NCBI GenBank assembly: GCA_050011565.1
Contig: JBEKIW010000004.1
Coordinates: 60,553 to 124,552, forward strand
DNA from: Dehalococcoidia bacterium
GTDB lineage: Bacteria > Chloroflexota > Dehalococcoidia > GIF9 > UBA5629
Reading direction: 5' to 3'
DNA: 64,000 nucleotides
How positions within the stretch are numbered: position 1 is the first letter of the stretch; each line of letters begins with the position of its first letter. A model generated the notes under the pieces. The model saw only the letters and a list, made by a program, of their open reading frames with translations, was not told the origin of the DNA and did no database searches. Positions 31,368-49,107 of this stretch are shown piece after piece. The position numbers and the translations under genes are program-made.

Positions 31368-32966
31368 TTAGCCCAGCTTACGCAGTTCCGCTCTCAAAAC
31401 TTTGCCTAAAAGGTTCTTAGGCAATGCGTCAATAAATTCTACACTCTTAGGCGTTTTAAAGGTGGGCAGGCATTCCTTGCAAAAAGCTATCATCTCTTGT
31501 TCGTTAGCTTGCTCCTGCGCTTTGAGCACAACGAAAGCCTTTATTTCTTCTCCATAGGTCTTATCCGGGACGCCGATAACACCGGCTTCGGCAACCTTGT
31601 GATTTCGATAAAGAACCTCTTCTATTTCTCGTGGAGATACATTTTCTCCCCCACGGATGATAATATCCTTTTTCCGATCAGTGATGTACAGATAACCGTC
31701 TTCATCCATATAGCCTATATCACCTGTGTAAAGCCAGCCGTTCCTGATAGCCTGTGCTGTATCCTCAGGCAGGTTCCAGTAGCCTTTCATCAAAGTAGGG
31801 CCCTTTACTACGATCTCGCCTCGTTGTCCCTGCGGTAGCTCGTGGTCGTTGTCGTCAAAAACTTTGATAACGTTGCATCTTAACAGGTTCTTGCCGATAG
31901 AGCCGTATTTAGGCGGGAGGTCAACCGGTTGTCCGGTGGTAGTGGCTCCCGATTCGGTTAGCCCCCAACCTTCTTTTATATCCACTCCTGTCTTTTCTTT
32001 CCACCTCAAGGCGATTTCCACAGGAAGTGCTGCTCCGCCGGAATTGCAGGATTGAAGTGAACTTAAATCGTATTTGTCCAGGTCTGGGAAATCCAGCATC
32101 TGTATGTACATGGTGGGCACCGCTGCCATATGTGTAATCTTAAATGATTGAATCGCTTTCAGGGCTTCCTCGACATTCCACCACCTGAGCACGACAGCTC
32201 TTCCACCTACGAAGGAACCCATAATGCTGAAGGCAATGCCATATGAGTGAGAAAGAGGCAGCACCCCCAGGCTGATCGTGGTCCGACTAACGCCGGTAAT
32301 ACCCAGCGATTCTTCGATTGGTTTAAGTGTCTTGGGGTCTATGGAATAGATTGTTGAGCGAACAGTCAGTGGCAGGTGGATGAGGACATATTCAAAAAAG
32401 CATAGGGCATTGATGTAAAGAGAATAGTGGGTATGCATCACTCCTTTAGGCTGACCTGTGGTGCCGGCAGTGTAGATTAAAGCTGCAACATCATTGTTAT
32501 CGGTTTCTTCTGCAATTAGTTCGTCTGAGCTATCGGACATCAGTTTACGGTATGAGAGCGTCCCGGGAATGTCATCTTTGTCGGTCAAGATGATATATTT
32601 CAACTTGGGAGCCTGTTTCTGTGCCTCTAGAATCCATCCCAGATAATCCGAGCTGGTAAGTAAAGCTTTGGCTCCGCAATCGCGATATATATAAGAGGCC
32701 TGGTCAGGCCGAAGCAGCGGATTTAAAGGTACTACTATGCCACCTATCTTGTATATGGCAGGGAAAGCTGAAAATACAGGCGGGCTGTTTGGCATCTGCA
32801 CCGCTACCTGGTCCCCTTTGCCGATTCCAAGCCCCTTTAATGCATTGCCCAGTTGATTGGCGGTGCGATTTGTTTCAGCGTTGGTATACCATCTGCCTTC
32901 GAAGTAGATACTCTCATACTCCCCGAACCTTTTAACATTGTCCTCGATGAGACTACCGATATTCAT
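31368..32966 (-). CDS. AMP-dependent acyl-CoA synthetase/ligase
   Basis: 532 aa. AMP-binding motif (YTAGTTGQPKGV), TGD and C-terminal lysine region. Confidence 0.85.
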   Translation of the reverse strand: MNIGSLIEDNVKRFGEYESIYFEGRWYTNAETNRTANQLGNALKGLGIGKGDQVAVQMPNSPPVFSAFPAIYKIGGIVVPLNPLLRPDQASYIYRDCGAKALLTSSDYLGWILEAQKQAPKLKYIILTDKDDIPGTLSYRKLMSDSSDELIAEETDNNDVAALIYTAGTTGQPKGVMHTHYSLYINALCFFEYVLIHLPLTVRSTIYSIDPKTLKPIEESLGITGVSRTTISLGVLPLSHSYGIAFSIMGSFVGGRAVVLRWWNVEEALKAIQSFKITHMAAVPTMYIQMLDFPDLDKYDLSSLQSCNSGGAALPVEIALRWKEKTGVDIKEGWGLTESGATTTGQPVDLPPKYGSIGKNLLRCNVIKVFDDNDHELPQGQRGEIVVKGPTLMKGYWNLPEDTAQAIRNGWLYTGDIGYMDEDGYLYITDRKKDIIIRGGENVSPREIEEVLYRNHKVAEAGVIGVPDKTYGEEIKAFVVLKAQEQANEQEMIAFCKECLPTFKTPKSVEFIDALPKNLLGKVLRAELRKLG

Positions 32967-33199: not shown

Positions 33200-34642
33200 A
33201 TGGTAGGCATTAAATCATACGGCGCTTACATCCCAAGGTATCGGATAAATCACAATACAATCTTTTCTGCAGTAGGGTTCCTTGGTACTTTTCCGCCACC
33301 GGGTGAGAACGCAGTTGCCAACCATGATGAGGATACGCTTAGCATGGCAGTAGCTGCCGGCGTTGATTGCTTGAATAGCATGAAAAGAGAGGAGATAGAA
33401 GGACTCTATCTGGCAACCACCAGCCAGCCCTATATGTTAAGGCAGAACTCAGCATTAGTGGCGGCTGCACTGGACCTGCAAAATAATATTAGAACTGCAG
33501 ATTTCCTTGGCTCTAACAAGGCAGGAACGGGTGCACTTCTTTCTGCCTTTGACGCCGTCAAAGGCGGTACATTAACCAATGTACTGGTCTGTGCCTCTGA
33601 TTGCCGTGTAAGTAAACCGGGTAGCTCGCAAGAGCCTCTATATGGTGATGCCGCTGCCGCTGTCCTTATGAGCAGTGATGACGTCATTGCTACACTCGAA
33701 GGTCACTTTTCTATATCTTATGATTTTCCTGACCGCTGGAAAGCAACCAGTGATAAATTTGAACATGCCTGGGAAGATAGGTTTATTCGCGACGCGGGCT
33801 ATACCAAGATTATACCCGAGGCAATTTCCGGCCTGCTGAAAAAGTACAACTTAGCTATTACTGACTTCACCAAAATTGCATTTCCTGACCTTTATCCTAG
33901 AGAACATGCCGCGATAGTCAAACGATTGGGCGCCGACCCTCGCCAGATTCAGACATCGTTGCTGGATAAAGTCGGTGATAGCGGTGCGGCTTCGCCCCTG
34001 ATGATGCTGGTGGCAGCGCTGGAAGATGCCAAGCCAGGGGATAAGATAATGGTTGCCAGCTTCGGAAATGGCAGCGATGCTATGTTTTTCCAGGTAACTG
34101 AAAAGATTAAGAAGATAGGTGATAGGCGTGGCATAAAGAAGAATTTGGAGACGAAAAAGGAGCTTGCCAGTTACGAAAAATACCTCGCCTTTCGTAATCT
34201 GACACCTGTGGAGTTGGGGATGCGGGGTGAAATAGGTTTTCGCACTCCCATGTCTACATTGTTCAGGGAACGAGAAACAGTTTTGGCCCTGTGCGGCTCT
34301 AAATGTAAGCGTTGCGGGACGCCGCAATATCCACGCCAAAGAATATGCGTTAATCCTGACTGTGGTGCTGTAGACCAAATGGAGGGCTATCGTTTTTCTG
34401 ATAAAAAAGGTGTGCTGTTTACTTATACAGGTGACAATCTGGCAGCCAGCATTGACCCGCCCGCGATTTATGGGTTCGTAGATTTTGATGGCGGAGGAAG
34501 GTTCTGGTTTGACATTACTGATTGCGACCTGGACTCGACTAAAGTGGGCATGCCTGTGGAGATGACCTTTCGCAGGAGATATGTTGATGAGAGCGGTGGT
34601 GTTTATGGCTATTCCTGGAAAGCAATGCCAGTGCGTGCCTAA
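33200..34642 (+). CDS. HMG-CoA-synthase-like (UPF0219 / archaeal-type) domain fused to a C-terminal DUF35 (Zn-ribbon plus OB-fold) domain
   Basis: The N-terminal MVGIKSYGAYIPRYRI opening and thiolase-like fold over about 350 aa resemble archaeal-type HMGCS. The C-terminal 130 aa have CGSKCKRCG...CVNPDCG (Zn ribbon) followed by an OB-fold (FVDFDGGGRFWFDI...MPVEMTFRR), typical of DUF35. Confidence 0.7.
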   Translation: MVGIKSYGAYIPRYRINHNTIFSAVGFLGTFPPPGENAVANHDEDTLSMAVAAGVDCLNSMKREEIEGLYLATTSQPYMLRQNSALVAAALDLQNNIRTADFLGSNKAGTGALLSAFDAVKGGTLTNVLVCASDCRVSKPGSSQEPLYGDAAAAVLMSSDDVIATLEGHFSISYDFPDRWKATSDKFEHAWEDRFIRDAGYTKIIPEAISGLLKKYNLAITDFTKIAFPDLYPREHAAIVKRLGADPRQIQTSLLDKVGDSGAASPLMMLVAALEDAKPGDKIMVASFGNGSDAMFFQVTEKIKKIGDRRGIKKNLETKKELASYEKYLAFRNLTPVELGMRGEIGFRTPMSTLFRERETVLALCGSKCKRCGTPQYPRQRICVNPDCGAVDQMEGYRFSDKKGVLFTYTGDNLAASIDPPAIYGFVDFDGGGRFWFDITDCDLDSTKVGMPVEMTFRRRYVDESGGVYGYSWKAMPVRA

Positions 34643-34674: not shown

Positions 34675-35877
34675 ATGGCAGAAGGTATTAGAGATAAGGT
34701 AGCTATCATCGGCATGGGCTGTACAAAATTTGGTGAGTTGTGGGATAAAGGCGCTGAAGACCTGATGGTGGACGCCTTCCAGGAATGCATTGAGGACGCC
34801 GGTATGGAAAAGAAGGATATCCAGGCAGCCTGGTTTGGCGTGCATTTTGAGGAGCAAAGTGTGGGAAAAGGGGCTACCTCTATGGCACTAGCGCTAAAGC
34901 TTCCTTTTATTCCTGTTACCAGGGTTGAAAACTTCTGCGCTACCGGCACGGAAGCTCTGAGAGGGGCTTGTTACGGCGTAGCTTCGGGGGCATACGATAT
35001 CGCTTTAGCCTTAGGTGTGGAAAAGCTAAAGGATACCGGGTATGGCGGCCTTCCCGGCGGCCAGGGCCTTTTAGGGTCCAGAAATGCGCTTATAATGCCT
35101 AAAATAACAGCACCGGGAAGTTTTGCCATGCTGGCGACGAGGTATTTCGCAGTGTACAGCCTCAGCCCCGAAGAAGGTAAGAAAATGCTGGCCAGGGTAT
35201 CAGCCAAAAGCCATCATAATGGTTCTTTGAACCCCAAGGCACATCTGCGACGCGAAATAACTGTGGAGCAGGTTATGAATGCTCCAATAATTGCCTGGCC
35301 GCTGGGGCTTTTCGATTGCTGCGGTGTCAGCGATGGTTCGGCAGCAGCTATCGTAACCACAGCTGAGCTGGCTAAAAAGTTCAGGCCTGACCCCGTATAT
35401 ATCAAATCTCTCCAGATTGCCTTAAGTTCGGGCGAGGAATTGATGTATACCAAATGGGATGGCGCGCATGTCGAGACCGGATTTCGCGCCGGAGTTCAAG
35501 CCTATAAAGAGGCCGGAGTTAAAAATCCGCGTAAAGAAATTAGCATGGCTGAAGTACATGACTGCTTCTCCATAACCGAAGCGGTAACTATGGAGGATTT
35601 GCAGTTCAGTCCCCGAGGAAAGGTTAAAGAAGATATCGAGGCTGGACGTTTCAATCTGGACGGCGAGCAGCCTGTTCAGCCCGACGGCGGATTGAAATGT
35701 TTCGGGCATCCTATCGGTGCCTCCGGCCTGCGTATGATGTACGAGATGTATAAGCAGCTGCAGGGCAAAGCCCAGTTGCCGGAACGACAGTTAAAGAACC
35801 CCAAGCTGGGATTAACTCATAATATGGGTGGCTTTCCGGCCATGAATATTGTTAGCGTGGCCATTGTTGGGTTATAA
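34675..35877 (+). CDS. thiolase-like protein (SCP-x / nonspecific lipid-transfer-protein type)
   Basis: 400 aa. N-terminal catalytic Cys region (VENFCATGTEALRGA), C-terminal GHPIGASGLRMM and CCGVSDG motifs. Confidence 0.8.
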   Translation: MAEGIRDKVAIIGMGCTKFGELWDKGAEDLMVDAFQECIEDAGMEKKDIQAAWFGVHFEEQSVGKGATSMALALKLPFIPVTRVENFCATGTEALRGACYGVASGAYDIALALGVEKLKDTGYGGLPGGQGLLGSRNALIMPKITAPGSFAMLATRYFAVYSLSPEEGKKMLARVSAKSHHNGSLNPKAHLRREITVEQVMNAPIIAWPLGLFDCCGVSDGSAAAIVTTAELAKKFRPDPVYIKSLQIALSSGEELMYTKWDGAHVETGFRAGVQAYKEAGVKNPRKEISMAEVHDCFSITEAVTMEDLQFSPRGKVKEDIEAGRFNLDGEQPVQPDGGLKCFGHPIGASGLRMMYEMYKQLQGKAQLPERQLKNPKLGLTHNMGGFPAMNIVSVAIVGL

Positions 35878-36202
35878 GACGGAAGAATGAACTTAAAAGG
35901 CAGGCTGTGGCTGATGGTGCGCCGGCGATATTTGACCTATATCAGGAAAGGGTATATGCTGGGCAGTAATTTACGTCTGATGCTATTGACATGCTGTGGT
36001 ATAATATTTGCCGTACCTCCGATTGTATTTTGTATTGAATATGCTATAAACTGGTCACATGAATAAAAAACAAATCTTATTAGTGGAAGGGGGTGGTCGT
36101 ATCGAGTGAATAAGACCAAGCATGCCGGGGCAAACATCGGTCGATGGTGTTTGTCAGCAAATTTGTCCTTAAGAGGAAATGTTTTAGGAGGTTAATGGCT
36201 AA

Positions 36203-38092
36203 GTGAAAAAAGTTCTGTTCTTATTGTTTACCTGTCTCTTACTTGTAGCGATTGTACTTCCTGCCTGTAAGCCTGGTCCAGCAGTTACCGGGCCAGTAAT
36301 AAAGATAGGCGTCATCGGGCCGATGCAATATATACAGGGCGAGCATCACTGGTGGGGTGCTGAGATGGCTCGTGATGAAATAAATGCGGCAGGTGGTGTA
36401 AAGGTCCTCCCTGACCAGCCCCCGTATATGGTTGAGCTAATCAAAGCAGACTCCAATGAAATAAACAGCATTACCGATGCCTCCGCGGCCATGGAAAAGT
36501 TGATAACGGTAGACAAGGCACAATTTGTGGTCGGGGGCTTCAGGACGGAAGCTGTCTTCCCCATGCAGGAAGTCGCCATGGACAACAAGATAATTTTCAT
36601 GAATTGTGGCGCGGCTACACTTGCACTACAAACGCCGGTGTTGACGAATTATGACCGCTATAAGTACTACTTCAGAGTCACTCCATTCCAATCCGGCTAT
36701 CTAGTCCAGAATGTGTTAATGTCAATGTCAATGGCCGAAAAAATAATAAAAGAGGATACCGGGATACAAAGGCCGTTGAATGCTGCTGTCTTTACTGAAG
36801 GGGCGCAGTGGGCTGATGCCATAACGTCAATCATGCAATCGCTGATTCCTACGAAGCTGGGTATGAAAGTCGTTGGCACATGGAGACCATCGCCTACAGC
36901 CACAGATTGTAATGCCGAGATGGCAGCTATACAAGCTGCTAACACCGACATTATCGGTGAAGTTATATCCGGCCCGCTTGGTGTACCATATGCCAGGTCA
37001 TGGGGCGAGCTGAAAGTACCGGCAGCTTCAGTGGGCATTAACGTTGAGTCCCAGGCTTTCACCTTCTGGGAAGCGACTCAGCATTTCGGCAACTTGGAGA
37101 CTGGCCTGGTTACATTAGCTGAGAACACAGCGGTTACGCCGAAGACTGTCCCGTTCTACAATGCCTTTGTAGCGAAGACCGGACAGCCACCCATATATAC
37201 TGGTGCCGGCACTTACGATGCCGTCTATACCTTGGCAGAAGCCATAACCCGGGCAGGGACTCTGGATTCAGATGCCGTGGTTGCTGAGCTGGAAAAGACG
37301 GATAGAGTTGGGGCTGGGGCCCGCCTTGTATTTACGGGTATTGATGATCCGTCGAAGGATCCTCACGACGTGACCTACGGTCCCGGATTTTCAACGGGTA
37401 TCGCCGGGCAGTGGCAGGATGGAAAATTGGTAGGTGTCTGGCCGAACCCTAACTATGTCGGGTATGTTCCGAATGATGCCTGGAAAACGGTGTCATATGA
37501 GGGAATGGTTAAGTGGATACCACGCCCCGAGCTAATCGACAAGTTGAAGGCCGAGGCGGCTACGCAACCGGCGGCACCCCCAGCGGGAGAACAACCTGCA
37601 GCACCTCCGGCGGGAGAACAGCCGGCAGCACCTCCAGCAGCAGGATTAGCGACTTACACCAACACCGAGTATGGTTTCTCCGTTCAATATCCTGGTGACT
37701 GGGTAGCGCGACCAGAGCTCATCATTAAGCCTGAATTCCAAAAGGCTGCATACGGTGTATCTGGCTTTGTTCCAGGGTTTGTTGCTTATGCCTTTGCTAA
37801 TCCTCCGGAGGAGTCTAAAGATTGGATCGTTACGTCTTTCAAGGCGACAGGCAATACAATGCCTAAAGTGACCTCAGACATCAAACAGGAGACTCTGGCG
37901 GATGGTACTCAAGCTTACACGTATAAAGCAAGCTATGTATCTGCCACTGGATATGGGATAGAGTCGTACGTCCTCGATGCAGATAAGGGAACCACCCGGT
38001 TTCGTGTGAATGTATTTACTATACCTGATATGGCTCCTATGGATGAGGCGCTGGCTTCGCAAGTTGCTCACTCTTTGACCTTTACAAAGTAA
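36203..38092 (+). CDS. Liv-type ABC transporter substrate-binding lipoprotein fused to a Pro-rich linker and a PsbP-like C-terminal domain
   Basis: 629 aa. GTG start, lipobox LPACK. Residues 30-440 are a periplasmic-binding-protein type I (LivK family) fold. Residues 455-480 are PAGEQPAAP x3. The C-terminal 150 aa begin YTNTEYGFSVQYPGDWV (PsbP-like hallmark). Confidence 0.7.
   Translation: MKKVLFLLFTCLLLVAIVLPACKPGPAVTGPVIKIGVIGPMQYIQGEHHWWGAEMARDEINAAGGVKVLPDQPPYMVELIKADSNEINSITDASAAMEKLITVDKAQFVVGGFRTEAVFPMQEVAMDNKIIFMNCGAATLALQTPVLTNYDRYKYYFRVTPFQSGYLVQNVLMSMSMAEKIIKEDTGIQRPLNAAVFTEGAQWADAITSIMQSLIPTKLGMKVVGTWRPSPTATDCNAEMAAIQAANTDIIGEVISGPLGVPYARSWGELKVPAASVGINVESQAFTFWEATQHFGNLETGLVTLAENTAVTPKTVPFYNAFVAKTGQPPIYTGAGTYDAVYTLAEAITRAGTLDSDAVVAELEKTDRVGAGARLVFTGIDDPSKDPHDVTYGPGFSTGIAGQWQDGKLVGVWPNPNYVGYVPNDAWKTVSYEGMVKWIPRPELIDKLKAEAATQPAAPPAGEQPAAPPAGEQPAAPPAAGLATYTNTEYGFSVQYPGDWVARPELIIKPEFQKAAYGVSGFVPGFVAYAFANPPEESKDWIVTSFKATGNTMPKVTSDIKQETLADGTQAYTYKASYVSATGYGIESYVLDADKGTTRFRVNVFTIPDMAPMDEALASQVAHSLTFTK
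37571..37645 (+). repeat. 27-nt tandem repeat (about 2.7 copies) encoding the PAGEQPAAP linker
   Basis: GCGGCACCCCCAGCGGGAGAACAACCT / GCAGCACCTCCGGCGGGAGAACAGCCG / GCAGCACCTCCAGCAGCAGGA. Confidence 0.7.
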
Positions 38093-38234
38093 CCATTTTA
38101 AATATTAGCGAGACCCCAGGCCAACGCCTGGGGTCTCGCCAGAGGCTTATCAGACGAATTGCCGGTCGGCAGTTTTTGAGGACGGCAAGCCTAGATTGAG
38201 AATGTTATATGGCAAATTAGCAAAAGGAGATGCG

Positions 38235-38879
38235 ATGACGAACAAGACATACAAATTCGTAACAGTGTTAATGGTCATGCTGCTTGTTCTGGGTCTGGCC
38301 TTAGTGGCCTGCAAGGCACCGGCTGAAACAGTAACGCCACCGGCTCCACCCGAACAACAAGCGACGCCACCGGCTGAACAACAAGCGACGCCACCGGCTG
38401 AACAACCAGCTACACCGCCGGCTGCACACCAACTGACATATACAGCTAAAACATATACTAATAGCCAGTATGGCTTCTCAATCCAGTACCCAAAGGATTG
38501 GGTAGAGCGCCCCGAAATCGCCAATGGGAGCCTTATCATTGCCTTCGGTGTACCCGGGTTCGTTCCTGGCGTAAGTATGAGTGTACGTGATGCAAATGAA
38601 CCTATGACTGCCGATTGGGTCGTGGCAGCGAATACGGCTGAGGGGAACACGAAGGTTAAAGTTACGTCACCTCCGACAGAGACAACTCTGTTTGACGGCA
38701 CGCCGGCAGTTCAGTACGTATCGAAGTTTACGTCTGGACAATACGACATTGTTTCTTTTGCCACCAGCACAGACAAGAACGGCAAGCGGATTCGTGCCAC
38801 TGTATGGACTATAGACGCGTTCTCTCCTTACGATGAGGCACTGTTCTCTGAGATAGCACACACCTTGTCAGTTAAATAA
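38235..38879 (+). CDS. PsbP-like domain lipoprotein with a Pro-rich linker
   Basis: The start is more likely the ATG at 38235 (RBS AAAGGAGA) than the ORF-track 38196. Lipobox LALVACK, PPAEQQAT x3 linker, then YTNSQYGFSIQYPKDWVERPE... This is homologous to the C-terminal domain of the upstream SBP. Confidence 0.6.
   Translation: MTNKTYKFVTVLMVMLLVLGLALVACKAPAETVTPPAPPEQQATPPAEQQATPPAEQPATPPAAHQLTYTAKTYTNSQYGFSIQYPKDWVERPEIANGSLIIAFGVPGFVPGVSMSVRDANEPMTADWVVAANTAEGNTKVKVTSPPTETTLFDGTPAVQYVSKFTSGQYDIVSFATSTDKNGKRIRATVWTIDAFSPYDEALFSEIAHTLSVK
38333..38420 (+). repeat. 24-nt tandem repeat (about 3 copies) encoding the PPAEQQAT linker
   Basis: CCACCGGCTGAACAACAAGCGACG repeated, with minor variation. 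Confidence 0.7.
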
Positions 38880-39013
38880 GAAATCGTTTTAGTCCTGTAT
38901 GGAGGCTGCAGGCCGGTTACAGTCTGTAGTCTCCATGAAGGTTAGCGGAACAAGTATGCCGTTTGGTACCGTAGAGTTAGGCAAGTAAGATTGAAGGTTA
39001 GGTAAGATAAGAT

Positions 39014-39886
39014 ATGGTTGAAGGAATTATAGTTCAGACTCTGGTGAAAGGAAGTGTATATGCGCTCCTGGCTCTCGGTTTCGCCCTAATCTTTGGGGTA
39101 GCCCGGGTGCTACAGCTGTCGCATACCGCGTTTTACATGCTGGCAGCCTACGGGATATTTGCTTTCGCCAGCTTACTCGGTTGGAGTCCGATTGTGTCCA
39201 TTATCCTGTCTATAGTCATTACTACCGGGCTGGGGCTTCTGGTGTACAAGCTACTTATCGACCGTGTACGTGAGCACCACGTAACCGTGATGCTGATAAC
39301 CCTGGCTGTAGCCATGATGTTTCAGCAGATCATGATTATTGCCTTCTCAGGTCAATATCGTTCAGCGCCGGCTTTTGTCACAGGATACTGGGAAATACTC
39401 GGCGTAAAAGTCGTCTTCCAGAATTTGCTGGTATTTGCTGGTGCGGCGGTTGTTCTGCTCATCGTATGGGCGCTTTTGTCAAAGACAAGACTGGGTATTG
39501 CCATCAGGGCTACCGCTCAGGACACCGAAATTGCCAATCTAATGGGGATAAATGTCTCCACTATACTGTTCACGGTTATGGGTATTGCCGCGGCACTGGC
39601 CGCGGTTGCCGGCGTGCTGGTGGCTCCAACGTTGGTCCTTGAACCTGGTATGCTGTGGCCTCCATTCGTCATGGTCATGGCGATAATTACTCTGGGTGGT
39701 CTGGGAAGCGTCAAGGGAAGTGTCATCGGAGCTTTTATTCTGGCCCTGGTTGAAACCCTGGTTGTTTTCTTGCTGCCTACCGGTGCCTTTCTTAAGGGGG
39801 CCGCCGCCTTGCTGGTCATGGTGATAGTACTCATTGTAAGGCCTGAGGGTCTATTTGGCGTAGTTTTCGAAGAGGAGAGATTGTAA
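39014..39886 (+). CDS. branched-chain-amino-acid-type ABC transporter permease (LivH family)
   Basis: 290 aa with about 8 TM helices, LivH-like. Confidence 0.85.
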   Translation: MVEGIIVQTLVKGSVYALLALGFALIFGVARVLQLSHTAFYMLAAYGIFAFASLLGWSPIVSIILSIVITTGLGLLVYKLLIDRVREHHVTVMLITLAVAMMFQQIMIIAFSGQYRSAPAFVTGYWEILGVKVVFQNLLVFAGAAVVLLIVWALLSKTRLGIAIRATAQDTEIANLMGINVSTILFTVMGIAAALAAVAGVLVAPTLVLEPGMLWPPFVMVMAIITLGGLGSVKGSVIGAFILALVETLVVFLLPTGAFLKGAAALLVMVIVLIVRPEGLFGVVFEEERL

Positions 39887-39887
39887 A

Positions 39888-40937
39888 TTGCTAAGTAGAT
39901 TATTTAAAGATTTTCAGGGCGATGTAGTGGCCATACCGGGCAGGTTAATAGCTTTAATTTTCTTTGTGCTCTTGTTTCTAATTCCTGCATTTACACAGCA
40001 GCCTTACATACTGCGTATGCTGATTTTTACGAATATGTTCGTTATCTTCGCCGTAAGCTGGGATTTTATATCCGGCTATACCGGCCAGTTGAACTTCGGT
40101 CATGCCCTCTTCTTCGGGGTGGCCGCCTACACGACAGCTTTGCTGAACAGGGGAGGCGACCTGGGCCCGCACTGGCCAATATGGGTAACCATACCGCTGG
40201 GTGCCATTGCAGCGGTAATAGCCGGCGTTGTCATGTGTTTGCCGGCATTGAGGTTGAGGGGACCCTATCTGGCTCTGGTAACCCTGGCGTTTCCACTTAT
40301 TCTTCTCGGGGTTATTTTCTCTTTTACCAAGTTTACCGGTGGTGAGTTAGGAATTTCCGGTATTGACCGCATTTCCGATTCCAGAACAGTAGAGTACTAC
40401 ATCTCAGTGCTCGTCATGATCGTCTCGGTATTCATAATGTGGAAGCTTACGGATGCCCAGAGCGGCCTGGTCAGGACAGGGATTATTCTTCATGCTATAC
40501 GCGAGGATGAAATTGCAGCTCGCGCCAGCGGAATAAATACAATACGATATAAGCTGTTCGCCTTTGCTGTAGGCGGCTTCTTCGCCGGAATAGCAGGCGG
40601 CTTTTATGCGCACTTCCTGAGAATTGCCGGTCCTTCCTCCCTGGACCTTACATTGTCGTTCCAAGCCATAATATGGACTGTTTTCGGAGGTATTGTTAGC
40701 ATTTACGGGGCGGTGGTGGGGGTTTATATACTTTATCCTCTGATGGAGTCCCTGCGTTCTATCTCGGAGTACCGGATGTTAATCTTTGCCGTCATAGTGA
40801 TACTGATTCTTCTTTTCATGCCTGAAGGCATTGCCGTCTGGATACGGGACAAGATTGAGAGACAATGTCCACGTTGCAAGCTGACTAATGTGTCATGGCG
40901 TCATACCTGTAGAGCTTGCAGCGCTGACCTGTACTAG
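39888..40937 (+). CDS. ABC transporter permease (LivM family) with a C-terminal CxxC..CxxC tail
   Basis: 349 aa polytopic. Last 30 aa: CPRCKLTNVSWRHTCRACSADLY. Confidence 0.85.
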   Translation: MLSRLFKDFQGDVVAIPGRLIALIFFVLLFLIPAFTQQPYILRMLIFTNMFVIFAVSWDFISGYTGQLNFGHALFFGVAAYTTALLNRGGDLGPHWPIWVTIPLGAIAAVIAGVVMCLPALRLRGPYLALVTLAFPLILLGVIFSFTKFTGGELGISGIDRISDSRTVEYYISVLVMIVSVFIMWKLTDAQSGLVRTGIILHAIREDEIAARASGINTIRYKLFAFAVGGFFAGIAGGFYAHFLRIAGPSSLDLTLSFQAIIWTVFGGIVSIYGAVVGVYILYPLMESLRSISEYRMLIFAVIVILILLFMPEGIAVWIRDKIERQCPRCKLTNVSWRHTCRACSADLY

Positions 40938-40989
40938 GGGATGCTTGGATAAGTAAAAGCTTACAATCTTCTGGGAAAAGCTAGAGATT

Positions 40990-41739
40990 CTAGAGGCCGA
41001 GATACGTCTTTCTGATAGTTTCGTCTTTGAGCAACTCTGCAGCTGTTCCTTGGGCGATGATATGGCCTCTTGACATAACGTAATTTCTTACTGAGAGGCT
41101 AAAAGCGAAACTGACATCTTGTTCAGCCAGTAAAATAGTAACACCCAGTTCGCGGTAAATCTCTTCTACACGTTTAAACAGGTCCTGCTTTAATTTTGGT
41201 GCCAGGCCGCTTGAGGGTTCGTCAACCATCATGAACTTAGGGCGACGCATCAACGACCTGCCAATAGCCAGCATTTGACGTTCACCGCCGGATAGTGTTC
41301 CCGATATTTGATTCTGTCGTTCTTTCAGTCTGGGAAAGAGCTCATAGACCTTTTCCATGCTACTATTAATTGCCTTCTGGTCCTTGACAAGATAAGCGCC
41401 GGCCAGCAGGTTATCTTTAACCGTCATTTCAACAAATGGCCTGCCTCGCTCCGGGCAAAGGAGCAGACCTCTTTTGGCTATATCAGATGCCGACAGATTT
41501 TCAATCCTCTCACCCTCGAACTCTATAATCCCATCGAAGGTTATATCAGCCTGTCTGGTTCCTTTTGAGACCTCTTTCTCCCACTTTATTAATCCTGCCA
41601 TAGCCCTGAGTAAGGTGCTCTTTCCGGCACCGTTGGGGCCGACAAGGCTCACCAATTCGCCTTTTTCTACATTAAGGCTGGCGTCATCCAGCACCGTGGC
41701 CGTGTCGTAACGGACGGTTACGTTTTTAACTTCCAGCAA
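40990..41739 (-). CDS. ABC transporter ATP-binding protein (LivF family)
   Basis: Walker A GPNGAGKST, signature LSGGERQ, Walker B MMVDEPS. Confidence 0.85.
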   Translation of the reverse strand: MLEVKNVTVRYDTATVLDDASLNVEKGELVSLVGPNGAGKSTLLRAMAGLIKWEKEVSKGTRQADITFDGIIEFEGERIENLSASDIAKRGLLLCPERGRPFVEMTVKDNLLAGAYLVKDQKAINSSMEKVYELFPRLKERQNQISGTLSGGERQMLAIGRSLMRRPKFMMVDEPSSGLAPKLKQDLFKRVEEIYRELGVTILLAEQDVSFAFSLSVRNYVMSRGHIIAQGTAAELLKDETIRKTYLGL

Positions 41740-42499
41740 TGAGCACCTCCTTACCTGTGTAAGCTTCGATTACTACGGGGTTTTTGGATATTTCTTCAGG
41801 TGTGCCTGTAGCGATGATTTCGCCAAAGCAAAGTACAATTACTCTGTCTACTATCTTCATCAGCTCACTAAGCTTGTGCTCTATGATAAGCATAGCCGGC
41901 CCTTCACTATGAAGCCGGCCGAATCTCCCGCCTTTGTGTAACCGTTTCATTGATTTGGCCACAAGCTCGGTTTCGGCTGGGTTCAATCCGCCGAAAGGCT
42001 CATCGAGGATAAGCAACTCCGGTTCGGTGGCAATAGCTCTGGCTACCTCCAGCCGCTTTAAATCCCCGTGTGCTAGAATAGAAGCCGGTTCTAGAGCCAT
42101 GTCGGCGATACCTACGAATTCCAAAGCGTCTCGTGCCTTTACCTCGACTCTTTTGACCCATTCGCCTCGCTTGGATATCCTCGGGCAGAGACAACCTACC
42201 ATAACGTTAGCTATGATAGGCAAATGGCGGAAAGGTTTTACTACCTGGAAAGTTCCCACCATACCTCTCTGGACAATATCCCACGATCGTTTTCTGGTTA
42301 TATCTTTGCCGTCAAGTATGACTTTTCCTGAATCCGGCCTCAATATGCCGAGTAAGCAGCGTATGAGTGTGGTCTTGCCCGAACCGTTTGGCCCAATCAG
42401 GCCGACGATTTCATCTCTTTCTATCTTGAAGCTCACATTATTAACAGCAGATAGACCGCCGAAGGTCTTGGTTAAATTTTCGACTTCTAGAAACGCCAT
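41726..42499 (-). CDS. ABC transporter ATP-binding protein (LivG family)
   Basis: Walker A GPNGSGKTT, Walker B LILDEPFGGLNP. Its start lies 7 nt after the upstream CoA ligase stop. Confidence 0.85.
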   Translation of the reverse strand: MAFLEVENLTKTFGGLSAVNNVSFKIERDEIVGLIGPNGSGKTTLIRCLLGILRPDSGKVILDGKDITRKRSWDIVQRGMVGTFQVVKPFRHLPIIANVMVGCLCPRISKRGEWVKRVEVKARDALEFVGIADMALEPASILAHGDLKRLEVARAIATEPELLILDEPFGGLNPAETELVAKSMKRLHKGGRFGRLHSEGPAMLIIEHKLSELMKIVDRVIVLCFGEIIATGTPEEISKNPVVIEAYTGKEVLIAGS

Positions 42500-42506
42500 T
42501 TTATAG

Positions 42507-44216
42507 CTACTCCTCTCTCAGCTCACGACGAGATACTTTGCCGACATCTGTTTTAGGCACCTCGCCTCTGAACTCGACGATTGTGGGACACTTATAATCA
42601 GCTAGCCTCTCCTGGCAATATTTCATGATATCCAGCTCTGATAGCTTCCCTCTGGCTTCTGTCTCGAGGACAACTACTGCTTTTACTTTCTCTCCAACCT
42701 CGGGGTCGGGAACTCCGATTACACCCGTCTCCTTGATTTGAGGATGAGCCGCCAGGACTTCTTCTACCTCCCTGGCATATACAATCTTGCCCTTGTGCTT
42801 AATCATATCACGTTTTCTGTCGTAGAAAAAGAAATAGCCGTCTTGATCCATTCTGCACAAGTCGCCGGTACGAAGCCAGATTTCACCGTCTATATTGACA
42901 AATGTTTCACTGGTTGCCTCCGGGTTTTTCCAGTATCCTTTGGCTACTTGTGGACCCTTTATTATAAGCTCGCCTATCTCGCCAACAGAAAGAAAATTGT
43001 TGCTATCGGGGTCGACTATGGCAGCCACGGTATTAGGTAGAGGTACACCGAAAGAGCCGACTTTTGTTTTGCCGAATGGGTTGACAATTCCCACAGAAGT
43101 TGTTTCAGTCATCCCCCAGCCCTCGTGGATTTTGGAGCCCGTCCTTTTCTCCCAGCCTTTAGCCGTGTCCTCAAGTAGGATGTCGGCGCCGGAGATAAGA
43201 ACTTTGACGCGCTTCCAATTGACTCTGTCGGTGCGGTGGTAATCTCGAAGATATTCATATAAGGCCGCCACGCTGTAGAAAATAGTTGCATGGTAAGTTT
43301 CCATGGCGTTGAGTAAGTCGTCAAGGTCGATGGTGGTGAATATCACCAGGGTGTATCCCTGCGCCAGACCACCCGCCACCAACACCGCCTGGCCATAGAT
43401 ATGATAGAAGGGCAAATAAGCTAAAATGGTTTCCTTGCCTTCTTGCGTAACATCGCCCCAGAAATTTGCGGCTATATGTTCGGATACGTTAATGTTTTCG
43501 TGGGTTATCATAACACCTTTGGGTAGTCCCGTTGTCCCTCCGGTGTAGGGAAGAGTTACCAGGTCCTCCTTATTGTTGAATTCGATTTTCGGTGGATTGG
43601 GTGGATATTTCTTAATCAAGTCTTTGAATAGATAGAATCCCTCTCTATGGTAGAGCTCGGCAGGCGGTGCTGCCATCTTCTGGTAGACGGCACGGAGTAC
43701 GCTGCTGCCCATGAACCTTTTCAGCCACGGTATATAATCGGCGATATTTACCAGGATGACCTTATCCAGCTTGACTTCTGCCCGTTCGACGTTATCATAG
43801 AGATTATCCTGGCAGATAATTATGGTGGCGCCGCTGTCTTCAATTTGATGTTTGATTTCGGGGCTGACATAGAAAGGACTGATGGCAGTTAAAATGGCTC
43901 CAGCCTTTAAAGCTCCGAAAAAGGCTATGATGAACTGGGGTGAGTTCAGAAGTAGTAAAGCGACTCTATCCCCCTTTTTAACTCCTAAGTCCTGGAGAGC
44001 TGTGGCGAATCTATCGACATGGTCTCTTAGCTCGCGGTAGCTCATCTTCCTGCCATAGAATATTACGGCAGTTCTATCCTTCCATTTGTCTGTGGCTTCG
44101 TTAAAGATGTCAACTGCGGACTTATCCGCCATTTTTATGTCCGCCGGCACCTCCGGGAGATAGAACTTCAGCCACGGTCTGGATTCGTATATTGCCTTGT
44201 TGGTATCGGCCGCCAT
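42507..44216 (-). CDS. AMP-dependent acyl-CoA synthetase/ligase
   Basis: AMP-binding motifs (YTGGTTGLPKGV, GWGMTE, TGD). The start is taken at the internal ATG (44214-44216), which has a perfect RBS AAAGGAGGAGGTGA. The ORF-track 5' extension MLYFAPNKGGGDI appears to be leader sequence. Confidence 0.85.
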   Translation of the reverse strand: MAADTNKAIYESRPWLKFYLPEVPADIKMADKSAVDIFNEATDKWKDRTAVIFYGRKMSYRELRDHVDRFATALQDLGVKKGDRVALLLLNSPQFIIAFFGALKAGAILTAISPFYVSPEIKHQIEDSGATIIICQDNLYDNVERAEVKLDKVILVNIADYIPWLKRFMGSSVLRAVYQKMAAPPAELYHREGFYLFKDLIKKYPPNPPKIEFNNKEDLVTLPYTGGTTGLPKGVMITHENINVSEHIAANFWGDVTQEGKETILAYLPFYHIYGQAVLVAGGLAQGYTLVIFTTIDLDDLLNAMETYHATIFYSVAALYEYLRDYHRTDRVNWKRVKVLISGADILLEDTAKGWEKRTGSKIHEGWGMTETTSVGIVNPFGKTKVGSFGVPLPNTVAAIVDPDSNNFLSVGEIGELIIKGPQVAKGYWKNPEATSETFVNIDGEIWLRTGDLCRMDQDGYFFFYDRKRDMIKHKGKIVYAREVEEVLAAHPQIKETGVIGVPDPEVGEKVKAVVVLETEARGKLSELDIMKYCQERLADYKCPTIVEFRGEVPKTDVGKVSRRELREE

Positions 44217-44246
44217 TATGTCACCTCCTCCTTTATTTGGAGCAAA

Positions 44247-44256
44247 GTATAGCACA
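44247..44256 (-). promoter_or_regulatory. extended -10 promoter element TGcTATACT for the downstream CoA ligase
   Basis: Minus strand reads TGTGCTATACT, about 30 nt upstream of the ligase ATG. A duplicate sits at 46366-46376. Confidence 0.35.
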
Positions 44257-44500
44257 GTGTTTGTATTTTGCCAATGTGACTGAGATGTTTGGTGGTTATA
44301 TTAAAGTACGAACGAAATATACGCAGGATTGAGTTTTGCGAATTTAACAGCGTTCGCCCTGGTACTTTCATAACAGCACCAAATTCTAAGCTAGAGCAGA
44401 TTGTTGCCCATTTCTTTTGTTCGGTTGATAGGCTCTTTGCCGGCATCTAAGGCAGGCTTGTGAAAGGCTACATCAGTATCGCTTCAATGTCAAGCCGGTT

Positions 44501-46333
44501 TTACAGCTCGTCCTCTCTCAATTCCCGCCTAGATACTTTGCCGACATCTGTCTTTGGCACTTCACCCCTGAACTCTACGATTCTGGGACATTTATAGTGC
44601 GCCATATGTTCCGCGCAATATTTCATGATTTCTTCTTCGGAGACTTTGCCTCTGGCGTCCGTCTCGAGGACGACGATGGCTTTGACTTTCTCTCCGACGT
44701 TTTTGTCGGGAACCCCGATTACACCCGCCTCTTTGACCAGTGGATGCGCTTTCAGTACCTCCTCCACCTCCCTGGCGAATACCGCCAGGCCCTTATATTT
44801 AATCATGTCACGTTTTCTATCGTAGAAAAAGAAATAGCCTTCTTTGTCCATTCTGGCCAGGTCGCCGGTTCGAAGCCATGTTTCGCCGCCGATTTTGACG
44901 AACATTTTCTTCGTCTCTTCCGGATTATGCCAGTATCCTGGGGATATTTGTGGACCCCTGACGGCAAGCTCGCCTATCTCGCCAACAGGCAGAAATTTGG
45001 TGCTTTCAGGACTGAGTATTCCAGCTACTGTGTTACACATGGGGACGCCGAAAGAACCGACCTTCGGCCTGCCGTATGGACTACCCATTCCAATAGAGCT
45101 AGTCTCAGTCATACCCCAGCCCTCATGTATTTTAGTATTTGTCCGTTTCTCCCAACCTATCGCCGTATCTTCAAGAAGGGCATCGGCGCCGGAGACGAGA
45201 ACTTTGAGGCGCTTCCAGTTAATTCTGTCCGTACGTTGATAATCTCTGAGGTACTCATACAAAGACGGGACGCTGAAGAAAATAGTTGCCTTGTAGCTTT
45301 CGATGGCATTTAAGATGTCGTCGAGGTCGGGGGTGGTGAATATCACCAGGGTGTAGCCCTGAGCCAGACCACCCAACATAATCACTGCCTGACCGTAGAT
45401 ATGGTAAAAGGGCAAATATGCCAGTATGGTCTCTTTGCCTTCCTGGACAATATTTCCCCAGAACTCTGAGCCTATGTACCTGGCTGCAGTGATATTATAG
45501 TGGGTTATCATAGCTCCTTTGGGAAGTCCTGTTGTGCCGCCGGTATAGGGCAGGGTTACCAGGTCCTCATGAATATTGAACTTGATTTTTGGCGGCTTGG
45601 GCGGATATTTCTTAATCAAGTCCTGTAATTGATAAATTCCTTCTCTTTCATATATCTCAGAAGGTGGTGCTGCCATCTTCTGGTATACAGCCCTGAGTAT
45701 GCTGCTGCCCAGGAACTTTTTTAGCCCGGGTAAATATTCTGCAATACTGGTCAGGATAACCTTATCCAGTTTGACTCCTGACCGTTCCACATTTTCATAA
45801 AGTATATCCTGGCAGACGATTATCCGGGCGCCGCTGTCTTCAATTTGATGTTTGATTTCGGGACTAACATAAACAGGACTGATGGCAGTCAGTATAGCTC
45901 CAGCCTTCAGGGCGCCGAAATAGGCTATGATGAATTGAGGTGAGTTCAGGAGCAGTAAAGCAACCCTATCACCTTTTTTGACTCCCAGGTCCTGCAAGGC
46001 TGTGGCGAATCTATCGACGTGGTCTCTTAATTCGCGGTAGCTTATTTTTCTACCGTAGAATATTACGGCGGTCCTATCCTTCCATTTAGTTGTAGCTTCA
46101 TCGAAGGTTTCGACTGCGGATTTTTCCGGTATTTTGACATCCGCGGGCACCTCTTTGAGGTAAAACTTCAGCCATGGTCTTTTTTCATATATTGCCTTGT
46201 TTGGGTCAGCCTTTGGAGCAGCTTTCTTTACTTGAGCTTTCTTTAGTTGAGCTTTCTTTAGTTGAGCTTTCTTTAGTTGAGCTTTCTTTGGGTGAGCCTT
46301 CTTTGGGTGGGACTTCTTTGGGTGAGCCTTCAT
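44501..46333 (-). CDS. AMP-dependent acyl-CoA synthetase/ligase with a lysine-rich N-terminal repeat tail
   Basis: Paralog of 42507..44216, about 75% identical by eye. The start is taken at ATG 46331-46333, preceded by TTAGGAGGAGACGACACA. The N-terminus is MKAHPKKSHPKKAHPKKAQLKKAQLKKAQLKKAQVKKAAPK. Confidence 0.8.
   Translation of the reverse strand: MKAHPKKSHPKKAHPKKAQLKKAQLKKAQLKKAQVKKAAPKADPNKAIYEKRPWLKFYLKEVPADVKIPEKSAVETFDEATTKWKDRTAVIFYGRKISYRELRDHVDRFATALQDLGVKKGDRVALLLLNSPQFIIAYFGALKAGAILTAISPVYVSPEIKHQIEDSGARIIVCQDILYENVERSGVKLDKVILTSIAEYLPGLKKFLGSSILRAVYQKMAAPPSEIYEREGIYQLQDLIKKYPPKPPKIKFNIHEDLVTLPYTGGTTGLPKGAMITHYNITAARYIGSEFWGNIVQEGKETILAYLPFYHIYGQAVIMLGGLAQGYTLVIFTTPDLDDILNAIESYKATIFFSVPSLYEYLRDYQRTDRINWKRLKVLVSGADALLEDTAIGWEKRTNTKIHEGWGMTETSSIGMGSPYGRPKVGSFGVPMCNTVAGILSPESTKFLPVGEIGELAVRGPQISPGYWHNPEETKKMFVKIGGETWLRTGDLARMDKEGYFFFYDRKRDMIKYKGLAVFAREVEEVLKAHPLVKEAGVIGVPDKNVGEKVKAIVVLETDARGKVSEEEIMKYCAEHMAHYKCPRIVEFRGEVPKTDVGKVSRRELREDEL
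46221..46333. repeat. 15-nt tandem DNA repeat (about 7 copies) encoding the K-K-A-(Q/H)-(L/P) tail
   Basis: GCTTTCTTTAGTTGA x3, then GCTTTCTTTGGGTGA / GCCTTCTTTGGGTGG / GACTTCTTTGGGTGA. Confidence 0.7.
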
Positions 46334-46365
46334 TGTGTCGTCTCCTCCTAATTTGCTAAGCGTCA

Positions 46366-46376
46366 AGTATAACACA
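46366..46376 (-). promoter_or_regulatory. extended -10 promoter element TGtTATACT for CoA ligase paralog 2
   Basis: Minus strand reads TGTGTTATACTTGAC... followed by the RBS and ATG, matching the architecture of the leader at 44217-44260. Confidence 0.35.
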
Positions 46377-46580
46377 TTATACTCGTATTTTGCTACTGTG
46401 TATGAAGTGCTGGTTATGCTGTTTTTAAGTCCGGAATATCCGGTTTATTGCCACGCAGGCTCTGGAATTGATAAAATACGCTACTATAGATGATTGCGGC
46501 TTAAATTAGCAGGTAATACCTGGCGCCGTTCACAATATAATCAGATGGGTTCGTCAAACATTAACCACAAGGAGGCTCGA

Positions 46581-47078
46581 GTGAGAAACAATAAAAAACA
46601 TTGGTTTCTGCTTTTGGGACTTATCGTCCTGCTGCTCAGTTCTGTCGTCGGTTGTGGTCAGCCGGGATTCACGGCATATACCAATGATTTGGGAGGGTAT
46701 AGTATTAGTTATCCGCTCAGTTGGAAGGGCGAGGTTTCTAAAGACGGGACAACATTCCTAATAGCATCTCCGACCCGCGTGGCTTCGGTCATGATATATG
46801 TAGCAGATTCCATGTCAGCTCAAACTGCTGCCCAACGTTGGCTTATGTCATTGGGAACACATTGGTCTGAAATAGCTCAAATAGAAAATAAACCAATGGA
46901 AGGCTTCTGGAACTGGTATGTTTCATATGACTATAATGCGGATACTGGCCCGTTTCACGGAGAGGCTTACTTCAAGAGCACTGCAGACCACCTCTATAGA
47001 TTGGATACGGCAGCAGATTCGGCTGGATACAAGAATTATCCCTTCTCTATGATAATCTCATCATTTAAGCTGAAGTGA
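46581..47078 (+). CDS. PsbP-like domain lipoprotein (third paralog)
   Basis: Probable GTG start at 46581 after GGAGG. Lipobox VVGCGQ. YTNDLGGYSISYPLSWKGEV... is homologous to the domains at 38235..38879 and the SBP C-terminus. Confidence 0.55.
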   Translation: MRNNKKHWFLLLGLIVLLLSSVVGCGQPGFTAYTNDLGGYSISYPLSWKGEVSKDGTTFLIASPTRVASVMIYVADSMSAQTAAQRWLMSLGTHWSEIAQIENKPMEGFWNWYVSYDYNADTGPFHGEAYFKSTADHLYRLDTAADSAGYKNYPFSMIISSFKLK

Positions 47079-48264: not shown

Positions 48265-49107
48265 AAATGGGTTAGTTCATTTGTAGAACTCTATTATTTC
48301 TCCTCTCCTAGGTTAATCTTTAGAGAAATTACTGATGAGCCACCCCATCGTCTGTTGGCGACTTACGTAACTGAAACATTTGTACACAACCCAAGTGTTC
48401 TAAACGCCTGTTTTATAGAAACAGATTATTCTCACCTTTACTTCCTTGCATTGATAAACTCGTCACTTTTGTCTGAATATTTTTATCGAACAAGTCCAAA
48501 GTCGGGCAAGGGACTATTTCCGAAAGTATTAGTCGAAGACATTAGGAGATTTCCCATACGCCGCGTCTCCTTTACCACACTTCGTGAACGGCGTGAGGCA
48601 TTGGTCGGTCAAGGCCGCCAGCTTTACGAGGTAGATCCGTCAAGCGTAGTCGCGTTCGTGGAAGAGCGTCTTTCCGCTCAACCGGAAGAATCAGATGTGG
48701 TGCATGACCTGCTGGCTTTCCTGGCGGAGGAGATGATACGGCTCAACAAAGAGAAGCAGTCCAGGATTAAAGTGTTTTTATCCTGGCTTGAGAAGGAGAT
48801 ACTGAAAGGCTCCGTTGAAGACCAGAAGAACAAGACAAAGATAAAGGACTTCTATAACAATACCTTTGAGGATTTGCTGGATGTGCTTAAGAAAAATAAG
48901 ATTATCCCGGACCCGTGCCCGTCCAACATACGGGACATTATAGCCAGTGAATTTTCGGCGGCTGTGAATGCCCTTACTCCACTAAAGACTCGAATCAAAG
49001 TAACCGATGACCTCATTGACCAGATAGTCTATAGACTCTACAGCCTTACCGATGATGAAATATCCATCGTGGAAGGCAGTATTACCACGACAACTCGAAC
49101 AAAATGA
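48265..49107 (+). pseudogene. fragment of a type IIG restriction-modification / BREX PglX-like protein (C-terminal TaqI_C-like specificity region only)
   Basis: The translation (..PRLIFREITDEPPHRLLATYVTETFVHNPSVLNACF...FLALINSSLLSEYFYR...FPKVLVEDIRRFPI...) resembles the C-terminal specificity region of gamma-class N6-adenine methyltransferase / type IIG enzymes. The reading frame is closed by TAA at 48262, there is no ATG, and the N-terminal methyltransferase domain is absent. Upstream is 590 nt of AT-rich non-coding DNA. Confidence 0.5.

Follow-up and report, generated by a model that had tools for sequence, protein, structure and literature searches.

Predicted PsbP-fold modules fused to and encoded beside a Liv-type ABC importer in a Dehalococcoidia gene cluster

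A stretch of 64,000 nucleotides from a Dehalococcoidia bacterium (GenBank assembly GCA_050011565.1, contig JBEKIW010000004.1, positions 60,553 to 124,552 of the forward strand; this whole stretch is referred to as the window, and positions are counted from its first letter) encodes a Liv-type ABC importer that is accompanied by three domains predicted, on the basis of structural models, to share the PsbP/Mog1 fold. The first domain (D1) is the C-terminal part of the substrate-binding protein (SBP) of the importer, the second (D2) belongs to a lipoprotein encoded next to the SBP, and the third (D3) to a lipoprotein encoded beyond the acyl-coenzyme A (CoA) ligase genes of the same cluster. D1 and D2 are clearly true paralogues of one divergent subfamily, whereas D3, judged by its sequence, belongs to a separate, tightly conserved family of 165-aa proteins within the same superfamily and is only a distant relative of the other two. 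A functional tie between the domain and the transporter is supported by gene order and by protein fusions in related genomes, and the three modules may serve as accessory units of the importer on the outer face of the membrane.

Relationship and predicted fold of the three domains

The open reading frames (ORFs) that a preliminary description of the window had assigned to the three proteins, all located on the plus strand, were confirmed. The SBP (36203..38092; 629 aa) consists of a signal peptide, a Peripla_BP_6 core, a Pro-rich linker and D1 (37643-38089), which spans residues ~481–629 (149 aa). The D2 lipoprotein (38235..38879; 214 aa), whose ATG start codon lies 7 nt downstream of the ribosome-binding site AAGGAG, combines the lipobox L-V-A-C26 with a 47-aa linker of Pro, Gln, Ala and Thr and a PsbP-fold domain (38451-38876). 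The D3 lipoprotein (46581..47078; 165 aa) starts with GTG, has the lipobox V-V-G-C25 and no linker, and its gene is divergent from that of the second acyl-CoA ligase.

D1 and D2 shared 46% identity over 149 aa (E 9e-37 in the pairwise alignment), and their match was recovered by tblastn against the whole window with an E of ~1e-31. No fourth copy of the domain was detected by tblastn in the 64-kb window. The alignment of D3 extended beyond the short N-terminal motif with D2 (30% identity over 63 aa; E 3e-5 pairwise and 0.006–0.008 against the window), but was limited to a 20-aa motif with D1. In a profile–profile comparison, the D1/D2 family matched the D3 family with a probability of 90% and an E of 1.6e-6 over 58 N-terminal columns only. 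The motifs conserved in the domain are YTNxxYGFSxQYP, DKxGKRIR and PYDE, and neither the ‘PE’ part of the motif described earlier nor a Pro-rich linker is present in D3. As the similarity of D3 is limited to the N-terminal ~60 residues and D3 forms a 165-aa family of its own, it was rejected as a third copy of the D1/D2 subfamily. The earlier claim that all three proteins share the same domain thus applies to D1 and D2, whereas the likeness of D3 over the whole domain exists at the level of the fold only. Homologues of D2 numbered 145 and were all affiliated with Dehalococcoidia or Chloroflexota.

Assignment of the fold relied on AlphaFold2 models of D2 and D3, which were built on the family alignments and reached predicted local distance difference test (pLDDT) scores of 96.2 and 94.0, respectively. 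Both models showed an identical order of strands and helices, with an antiparallel beta-sheet flanked by helices (beta-beta-(beta)-beta-beta-alpha-beta4-alpha) that can be superposed on solved PsbP structures. In Foldseek searches, the top match of both models was the cyanobacterial PsbP/CyanoP structure 2xb3 (E ~2.6e-8, TM score 0.73–0.75; for D2, E 2.7e-8 and TM score 0.73). Further matches comprised plant PsbP, PnsL subunits of NDH, Mog1, DcrB, Apa, MTC28, LpqN, Eag/SciW chaperones and Tsi3. Because the top matches are shared and the secondary-structure elements occur in the same order, the folds of D2 and D3 are considered equivalent, and the PsbP fold can be extended to D1 owing to its 46% identity to the modeled D2. 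NCBIfam yielded no family for D2 or D3, and D3 scored 17.7 bits against its PSII_PsbP model (NF040946; threshold 60). A search with a profile of the D1/D2 domain retrieved 726 representative proteins at E ≤ 1e-3. Among the 76 multidomain relatives found with this profile, PsbP_2 was assigned to 36 (best E 2e-63), PsbP to 19 and DcrB to four. The link of the window proteins to PsbP_2, which runs through these 36 relatives, is thus transitive only.

Lipoproteins were predicted based on a basic n-region, a hydrophobic h-region and a lipobox of the form [LVI][ASTVI][GAS]C. D2 and D3 show all of these features, contain a single Cys each that is invariant or nearly so in the respective family, and are therefore predicted lipoproteins (Lgt/Lsp substrates). 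In the preliminary description, a lipobox Cys had been placed before each of the three domains. This is correct in canonical form for D2 and D3, whereas Cys22 of the SBP resides in an L-P-A-C box with a non-canonical Pro at position −2, which is conserved in the orthologues, and is located ~460 residues before D1. The PsbP-fold domain of D3 begins within 7 residues of Cys25, and the stalks of D1 and D2 have lengths of 37–47 residues. The tandem DNA repeats reported for two of the linkers are real, as verified by Tandem Repeats Finder. A 27-nt repeat with 2.7 copies (37565-37638, plus strand) encodes QPAAPPAGE in the linker between the SBP core and D1, and a 24-nt repeat with 3.4 copies (38352-38432, plus strand) encodes EQQATPPA in the D2 linker. 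Among the homologues, the D1-type linkers varied in length and sequence, and the length of the D2 linker varied widely.

Conservation with the importer and history of the copies

The loci with conserved synteny were all from one order, the Dehalococcoidales. The gene order SBP with D1, D1-type and/or D2-type lipoprotein(s), LivHM, LivFG, ligase(s) and D3 recurred in the loci L001–L006, L011, L012, L017 and L041, and D3 was present in 10 of the 10 loci for which downstream sequence was available. Even the genes of the most distant D3 homologues (57–59% identity) were still divergent from a ligase gene, while the gene on the other side of D3 differed and coded for a CBS, a rotamase or an NMT1-family binding protein, depending on the locus. 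Genes for MaoC and SDR proteins were variably present inside the cluster among the relatives. The 119 homologues most similar to the SBP core (≥56% identity) comprised 57 long forms, which have the domain, and 62 short forms, which lack it. In one cassette with a short-form SBP (L045), the domain was detected in a lipoprotein encoded just upstream (E 4e-31), where its linker is an acidic coiled coil. The free upstream domain at this locus and the fused domain of the long forms together indicate a pattern of fusion and fission.

The D1/D2-subfamily domain was also found in other protein contexts. In Ser/Thr kinases and in TIR proteins with a transmembrane (TM) helix, it makes up the extracellular C-terminus and is separated from the TM helix by a spacer that is Pro-rich or consists of FN3 (for example, L016 8534-10999 and the proteins P0215, P0229, P0212 and P0198). 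The kinases are arranged as zinc ribbon, kinase, TM helix, FN3 and then one or two PsbP-like domains, with two tandem domains in one kinase, and the kinase gene of L016 adjoins genes for PP2C, FHA-ABC and vWA proteins. Other C-terminal fusions involved clostripain-like peptidases and PD40, CARDB, FN3 and InlB-repeat proteins. At four loci (L008 7600-10453, L009, L010 and L040), genes of a sister subfamily of D2-type lipoproteins were paired divergently with a gene for a polytopic membrane alpha/beta hydrolase of ~600 aa, which was 56–75% identical among the loci, and no transporter was encoded nearby. In view of these contexts, the domain is not specific to transporters. The preliminary description had linked the domain functionally to the transporter. 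The conserved cluster, the 57 fusions among the 119 SBP homologues and the free domain in L045 argue for this link, but it is qualified by the additional contexts and by a related cassette that lacks the module (L046, see below).

A local duplication had also been proposed as the origin of three paralogues. Our data agree with this proposal for D1 and D2 only and as an ancient event, but neither for D3 nor for a recent origin. By blastn within the window, no DNA similarity was detected between D1 and D2, and in a tree of all copies the two domains fell into different clades, each with orthologues from other species, which predate the sampled species. Since no DNA similarity is left and the clades are separate, the duplication of D1 and D2 must be considered old, and a recent local duplication is excluded.

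A different pattern emerged for the copies of the D1 type. Several related genomes contain an extra gene for a free D1-type lipoprotein, located between the SBP gene and the gene for the D2-type lipoprotein or LivH, which is lacking in the genome of the window. Within a genome, D1 of the SBP and the extra D1-type lipoprotein were 94, 89, 85, 72 and 68% identical at the protein level and up to 92% identical at the DNA level. These copies are far closer to each other than the D1 orthologues are between genomes (L001, 8542-8973 versus 9399-9830; L003, L041, L017 and L014), which is a signature of gene conversion or repeated re-duplication (concerted evolution). Besides the linker and the domain, the converted tract includes a hairpin located downstream of them. 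In the window, this hairpin is a perfect GC-rich inverted repeat of 14 bp without a T tract, located directly 3′ of the SBP stop codon (38108..38139, plus strand; folding energy −32.2 kcal/mol, z −6.6). The hairpin GAGACCCC.GG recurs 3′ of the SBP gene and of every D1-type lipoprotein gene in L001, L003 and L041. A genome-wide repeat was rejected as an explanation, because the hairpin occurs only once in the window. The hairpin belongs to the duplicated or converted unit, and it probably acts as an mRNA 3′ stabilizer (of the SBP part) or as an attenuator. A seemingly split locus in the chromosome CP070642.1, a metagenome-assembled genome designated ‘complete’ (L007 and L013), was not accepted as evidence that D2 travels with the permeases. 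Both sites abut masked runs of N exactly at the repeated domain, and the assembly is therefore probably mis-joined there.

Gene content of the surrounding cluster

At 33.2–47.1 kb, the window contains a pair of convergent operons and a single divergent gene. The first two products of the plus-strand operon, both identified by Pfam and NCBIfam matches, are an HMG-CoA-synthase-like protein (33200-34642), which carries a ChsH2/DUF35 OB-fold, and an SCP-x-type thiolase (34675-35877). Their genes are syntenic in L001, L003, L017 and L041. The operon continues with the genes for the SBP, the 214-aa lipoprotein, a LivH-like permease (39014-39886; match to the NCBIfam UrtB/LivH family) and a LivM-like permease (39888-40937; LivM/UrtC family). 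The minus-strand operon contains the genes for two paralogous AMP-forming acyl-CoA ligases (42507-44255 and 44501-46375), followed by the ORFs of a LivG-like (41726-42499) and a LivF-like ATPase (40990-41739), both convergent with the permease operon; the gene of the 165-aa lipoprotein is divergent from the ligase genes. In the orthologous loci, BPD_transp_2 was annotated on the permeases, ABC_tran and BCA_ABC_TP_C were annotated on the ATPases, and the LivF and LivG orthologues were 87–95% identical. With Peripla_BP_6 (PF13458) at 97.3 bits (cutoff 31.7) and the genes for the LivH/M permeases and LivG/F ATPases in its neighborhood, the SBP can be classified as a binding protein of the HAAT/Liv type. 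The database proteins P0001 and P0340 were 100% identical to window proteins and are both assigned to a Dehalococcoidia bacterium; P0340, identical to the SBP, is named ABC transporter substrate-binding protein.

The AMP-binding scores of the two ligases were 310 and 298 bits, and their closest NCBIfam models were the long-chain fatty-acid CoA ligase and PimA, both below the cutoff. Judged by its gene content, the region would be a conserved Dehalococcoidales cluster for the uptake of an organic acid, its activation with CoA and its beta-oxidation-like processing. The substrate is most likely a fatty or dicarboxylic acid, as suggested by the resemblance of the ligases, the pair of thiolase and DUF35 protein, and the MaoC hydratases and SDR proteins of the relatives. 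No conclusion on the ligand was drawn from the SBP core, whose sequence matches in the PDB were weak (E ≥ 6e-5) and pointed to generic binding proteins for branched-chain amino acids or urea.

Several further features were observed in the cluster and its surroundings. In L001 (4925-6782) and L003 (5874-7739), two genes for MaoC-type hydratases and one SDR gene are located between the thiolase and SBP genes, where the window (35878-36202) and L041 have only a gap of ~250–325 bp; the cluster thus exists in two variants. The C-terminal tail of LivM (40860-40937) is a zinc-ribbon-like CxxC-x11-CxxC sequence (ERQCPRCKLTNVSWRHTCRACSADLY), which is kept in all related cassettes including L045 and L046 with their PsbP-free SBPs. 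At the N-terminus of the second ligase, a 15-nt tandem repeat of ~7.7 copies (46220-46335) encodes a Lys-rich (HPKKA/QLKKA)n extension. This repeat is absent from the orthologues in L001, L003 and L041, and L042 has a differing repeat of the DSKK type. A third AMP-forming ligase is encoded on the minus strand just upstream of the cluster (31368-32966) and is syntenic with L003 and L041. Two large proteins with IPT/TIG domains (10731-12482 and 29400-31025) are probably exposed at the cell surface. An ORF of 250 aa (48355-49107) between the CBS and DUF362 genes had weak matches of the TaqI_C specificity-domain and Ydc2-like types. As the corresponding gap of L003 is shorter by ~700 bp, this ORF seems to be the remnant of an inserted restriction-modification gene.

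Possible roles of the modules

PsbP-fold lipoproteins as such are already known. CyanoP has a lipobox, binds tightly to the membrane and associates with photosystem II (PMC4180030). The window proteins share the fold of CyanoP and PsbP (PF01789; PDB 2xb3 and 1v2b), but their sequence identity to them is only 15–19%, their host is non-photosynthetic, and their genomic partner is an ABC importer with ligases instead of photosystem II. Other differences are the long Pro-rich stalks of D1 and D2 and the fusion of D1 to an SBP. LpqN has been reported as an accessory partner of MmpL3 and MmpL11 (PMC7458404). The likeness to LpqN, MTC28 and Apa (Mog1-PsbP-fold; PDB 6e5d, 4ol4/4pws and 5zx9) is restricted to the fold, and none of the three proteins matched the LpqN family (Lpp-LpqN) at E ≤ 1. 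LpqN is associated with an exporter of the RND type and a diderm-like envelope, whereas the putative partner in the window is an ABC importer with an SBP. The same search gave no match to DcrB (PF08786; PDB 6e8a), an enterobacterial inner-membrane lipoprotein with an unrelated genomic context, and here, too, the likeness is one of fold only. As for the importer, the SBP core, LivHMGF and the adjacent AMP-forming ligases represent a standard Liv/HAAT cassette, and sister cassettes free of PsbP-like genes occur in the same lineage. In contrast to this standard, the long-form SBP has an additional C-terminal PsbP-fold domain, and the cluster contains one or two stalked lipoproteins and D3 in addition. 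A literature search on PsbP-like domains with SBPs, ABC transporters or Dehalococcoidia yielded nothing relevant, and no description of an SBP–PsbP fusion, of a transporter-associated PsbP set or of kinase and TIR fusions of the domain was found in the searchable literature.

Our preferred, tentative reading (probability roughly 0.45) is that all three modules have an accessory function, in binding or docking, at the outer face of the membrane. It is favored because the characterized members of the fold are mostly extrinsic partners of membrane complexes or binding proteins, and it draws on the analogy with CyanoP/PsbP, which docks on photosystem II, and with LpqN as a partner of MmpL3. The modules would act as extrinsic partners of integral membrane machinery, which in this case would be the LivHM permease with the SBP. 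D3 may be the membrane-proximal partner, as only 7 residues separate its lipid anchor from the domain, and the stalks of 37–47 residues suggest that D1 and D2 could be reaching modules, which would bind a partner protein or a substrate-related ligand. The existence of sister cassettes without the modules suggests that these would be accessory and not essential. What all contexts have in common is an extracytoplasmic module next to a membrane-integral partner, which may be a permease, a hydrolase or a single-pass receptor.

A number of observations weigh against this reading. All comparative data stem from metagenome-assembled genomes. In Pfam, D1 and D2 matched PsbP_2 (PF18933) best, owing to the N-terminal YTN..YGFS.QYP..W strands, but its threshold of 27 bits was missed by the SBP (16.2), D2 (21.1) and D3 (14.7). 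These scores of 14.7–21.1 bits stem mostly from ~20 residues, and the window proteins represent divergent subfamilies restricted to Dehalococcoidia. The threshold of Pfam PsbP (PF01789; 23.5 bits) was likewise missed by D2 (13.0) and D3 (16.8). Hence, the term ‘PsbP-like’ used in the preliminary description is appropriate at the level of the fold and superfamily, with D2 and D3 modeled and D1 connected via D2, but not by these Pfam thresholds. D3 is joined to the cluster via a divergent promoter, which is weaker evidence than co-transcription. L046, a closely related cassette with Liv genes, a ligase and a short-form SBP, contained no PsbP-like gene. At L047 (10001-11681), an orphan short-form SBP of 474 aa adjoins ribosomal protein genes and is followed by an ORF of 60 aa that matches the last third of the domain (E 5e-16), representing a decayed fusion or a frameshift. 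The lack of the module in L046 and the remnant in L047 indicate that it is dispensable. Finally, a generic envelope or surface-binding role would fit the unrelated contexts of the D1/D2 subfamily equally well.

Among the alternatives, we consider it doubtful that D1 and D2 bind a hydrophobic or organic-acid substrate on their long stalks and pass it to the SBP core, with D3 acting likewise at the membrane surface; substrate capture had been suggested in the preliminary description. Such capture would resemble the lipid-binding proteins LpqN and LprG, which feed transporters, and the fatty-acid/PimA-like CoA ligases together with the thiolase and DUF35 enzymes make an amphipathic substrate plausible. 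A small-molecule sensor would be compatible with the extracellular position of the domain in kinases and TIR receptors. Its invariant aromatic and charged motifs (YTNxxYGFSxQYP, DKxGKRIR and PYDE) could be read in the same way, but the N-terminal one characterizes the structure of the PsbP_2 family as a whole and is not a specific binding site. Moreover, most characterized proteins of the PsbP/Mog1 fold (PsbP, Mog1, Tsi3 and the Eag chaperones) bind proteins, high-affinity capture is already supplied by the SBP, and the sister cassettes import without the module. The Pro-rich stalks with their repeat-driven variable length are also compatible with a role in envelope anchoring or spacing, which we judge to be rather unlikely. 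The domain would then bind an S-layer or another surface polymer of these monoderm bacteria, which have no wall, and position SBPs, kinases, peptidases and adhesin-like proteins, analogous to SLH or LysM domains elsewhere, and the transporter would be one instance among others. This would agree with the position of the domain, which is always the most distal one, with the wide range of proteins at whose C-terminus it occurs (FN3, CARDB, InlB-repeat, PD40, clostripain, kinase and TIR) and with its 726 representatives at E ≤ 1e-3. However, the SBP, D2 and D3 already possess predicted lipid anchors, and D3 is stalkless and could not reach an S-layer. In addition, anchoring leaves both the strict conservation of D3 beside the ligases and the fusion and separation of the domain with one particular SBP clade unexplained.

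It is very improbable in our view that no functional tie exists at all, with D2 and D3 being general envelope lipoproteins whose genes have simply retained their ancestral position within a narrow clade, and with D1 being a neutral fusion. With all syntenic loci in one order, shared ancestry alone could keep the gene order, and the module is dispensable in sister cassettes. Nevertheless, synteny has been kept while the gene beyond D3 changed (CBS, rotamase or NMT1-family binding protein) and while MaoC and SDR genes came and went in the cluster. Furthermore, the domain has become part of the SBP cassette by several routes (fused, downstream, or upstream with a different linker), and the SBP domain and the neighboring lipoprotein are 68–94% identical within each genome. 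This concerted evolution within genomes would reflect selection for homotypic pairing if the D1/D2-type domain were a lineage-specific sensor or co-receptor of Dehalococcoidia, which couples the availability of the transporter substrate to transmembrane signaling. A shared ligand or homotypic domain–domain contacts would then link the SBP, the stalked lipoproteins, the Hanks-type Ser/Thr kinases and the TIR receptors. We regard such a sensory function as quite unlikely.

Dehalococcoidia, most of which are uncultured, abound in sediments, aquifers and peat. Their cells have no peptidoglycan wall, and the capture of organic acids at the cell surface is poorly understood. If the modules were generic surface anchors, our finding would reduce to the routine annotation of a lineage-specific domain. 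The cluster also illustrates, as a clean natural case, how a domain undergoes fusion and fission and how its fused and free copies evolve in concert. If the preferred reading is true, the PsbP-fold module, which recurs as a fusion partner or close neighbor of the SBP of one ABC importer, would be an importer accessory of a new kind. Beyond the biology of the photosystem and the mycobacterial envelope, the PsbP/Mog1 fold would then also function in the uptake and sensing of nutrients in a major lineage of the subsurface.

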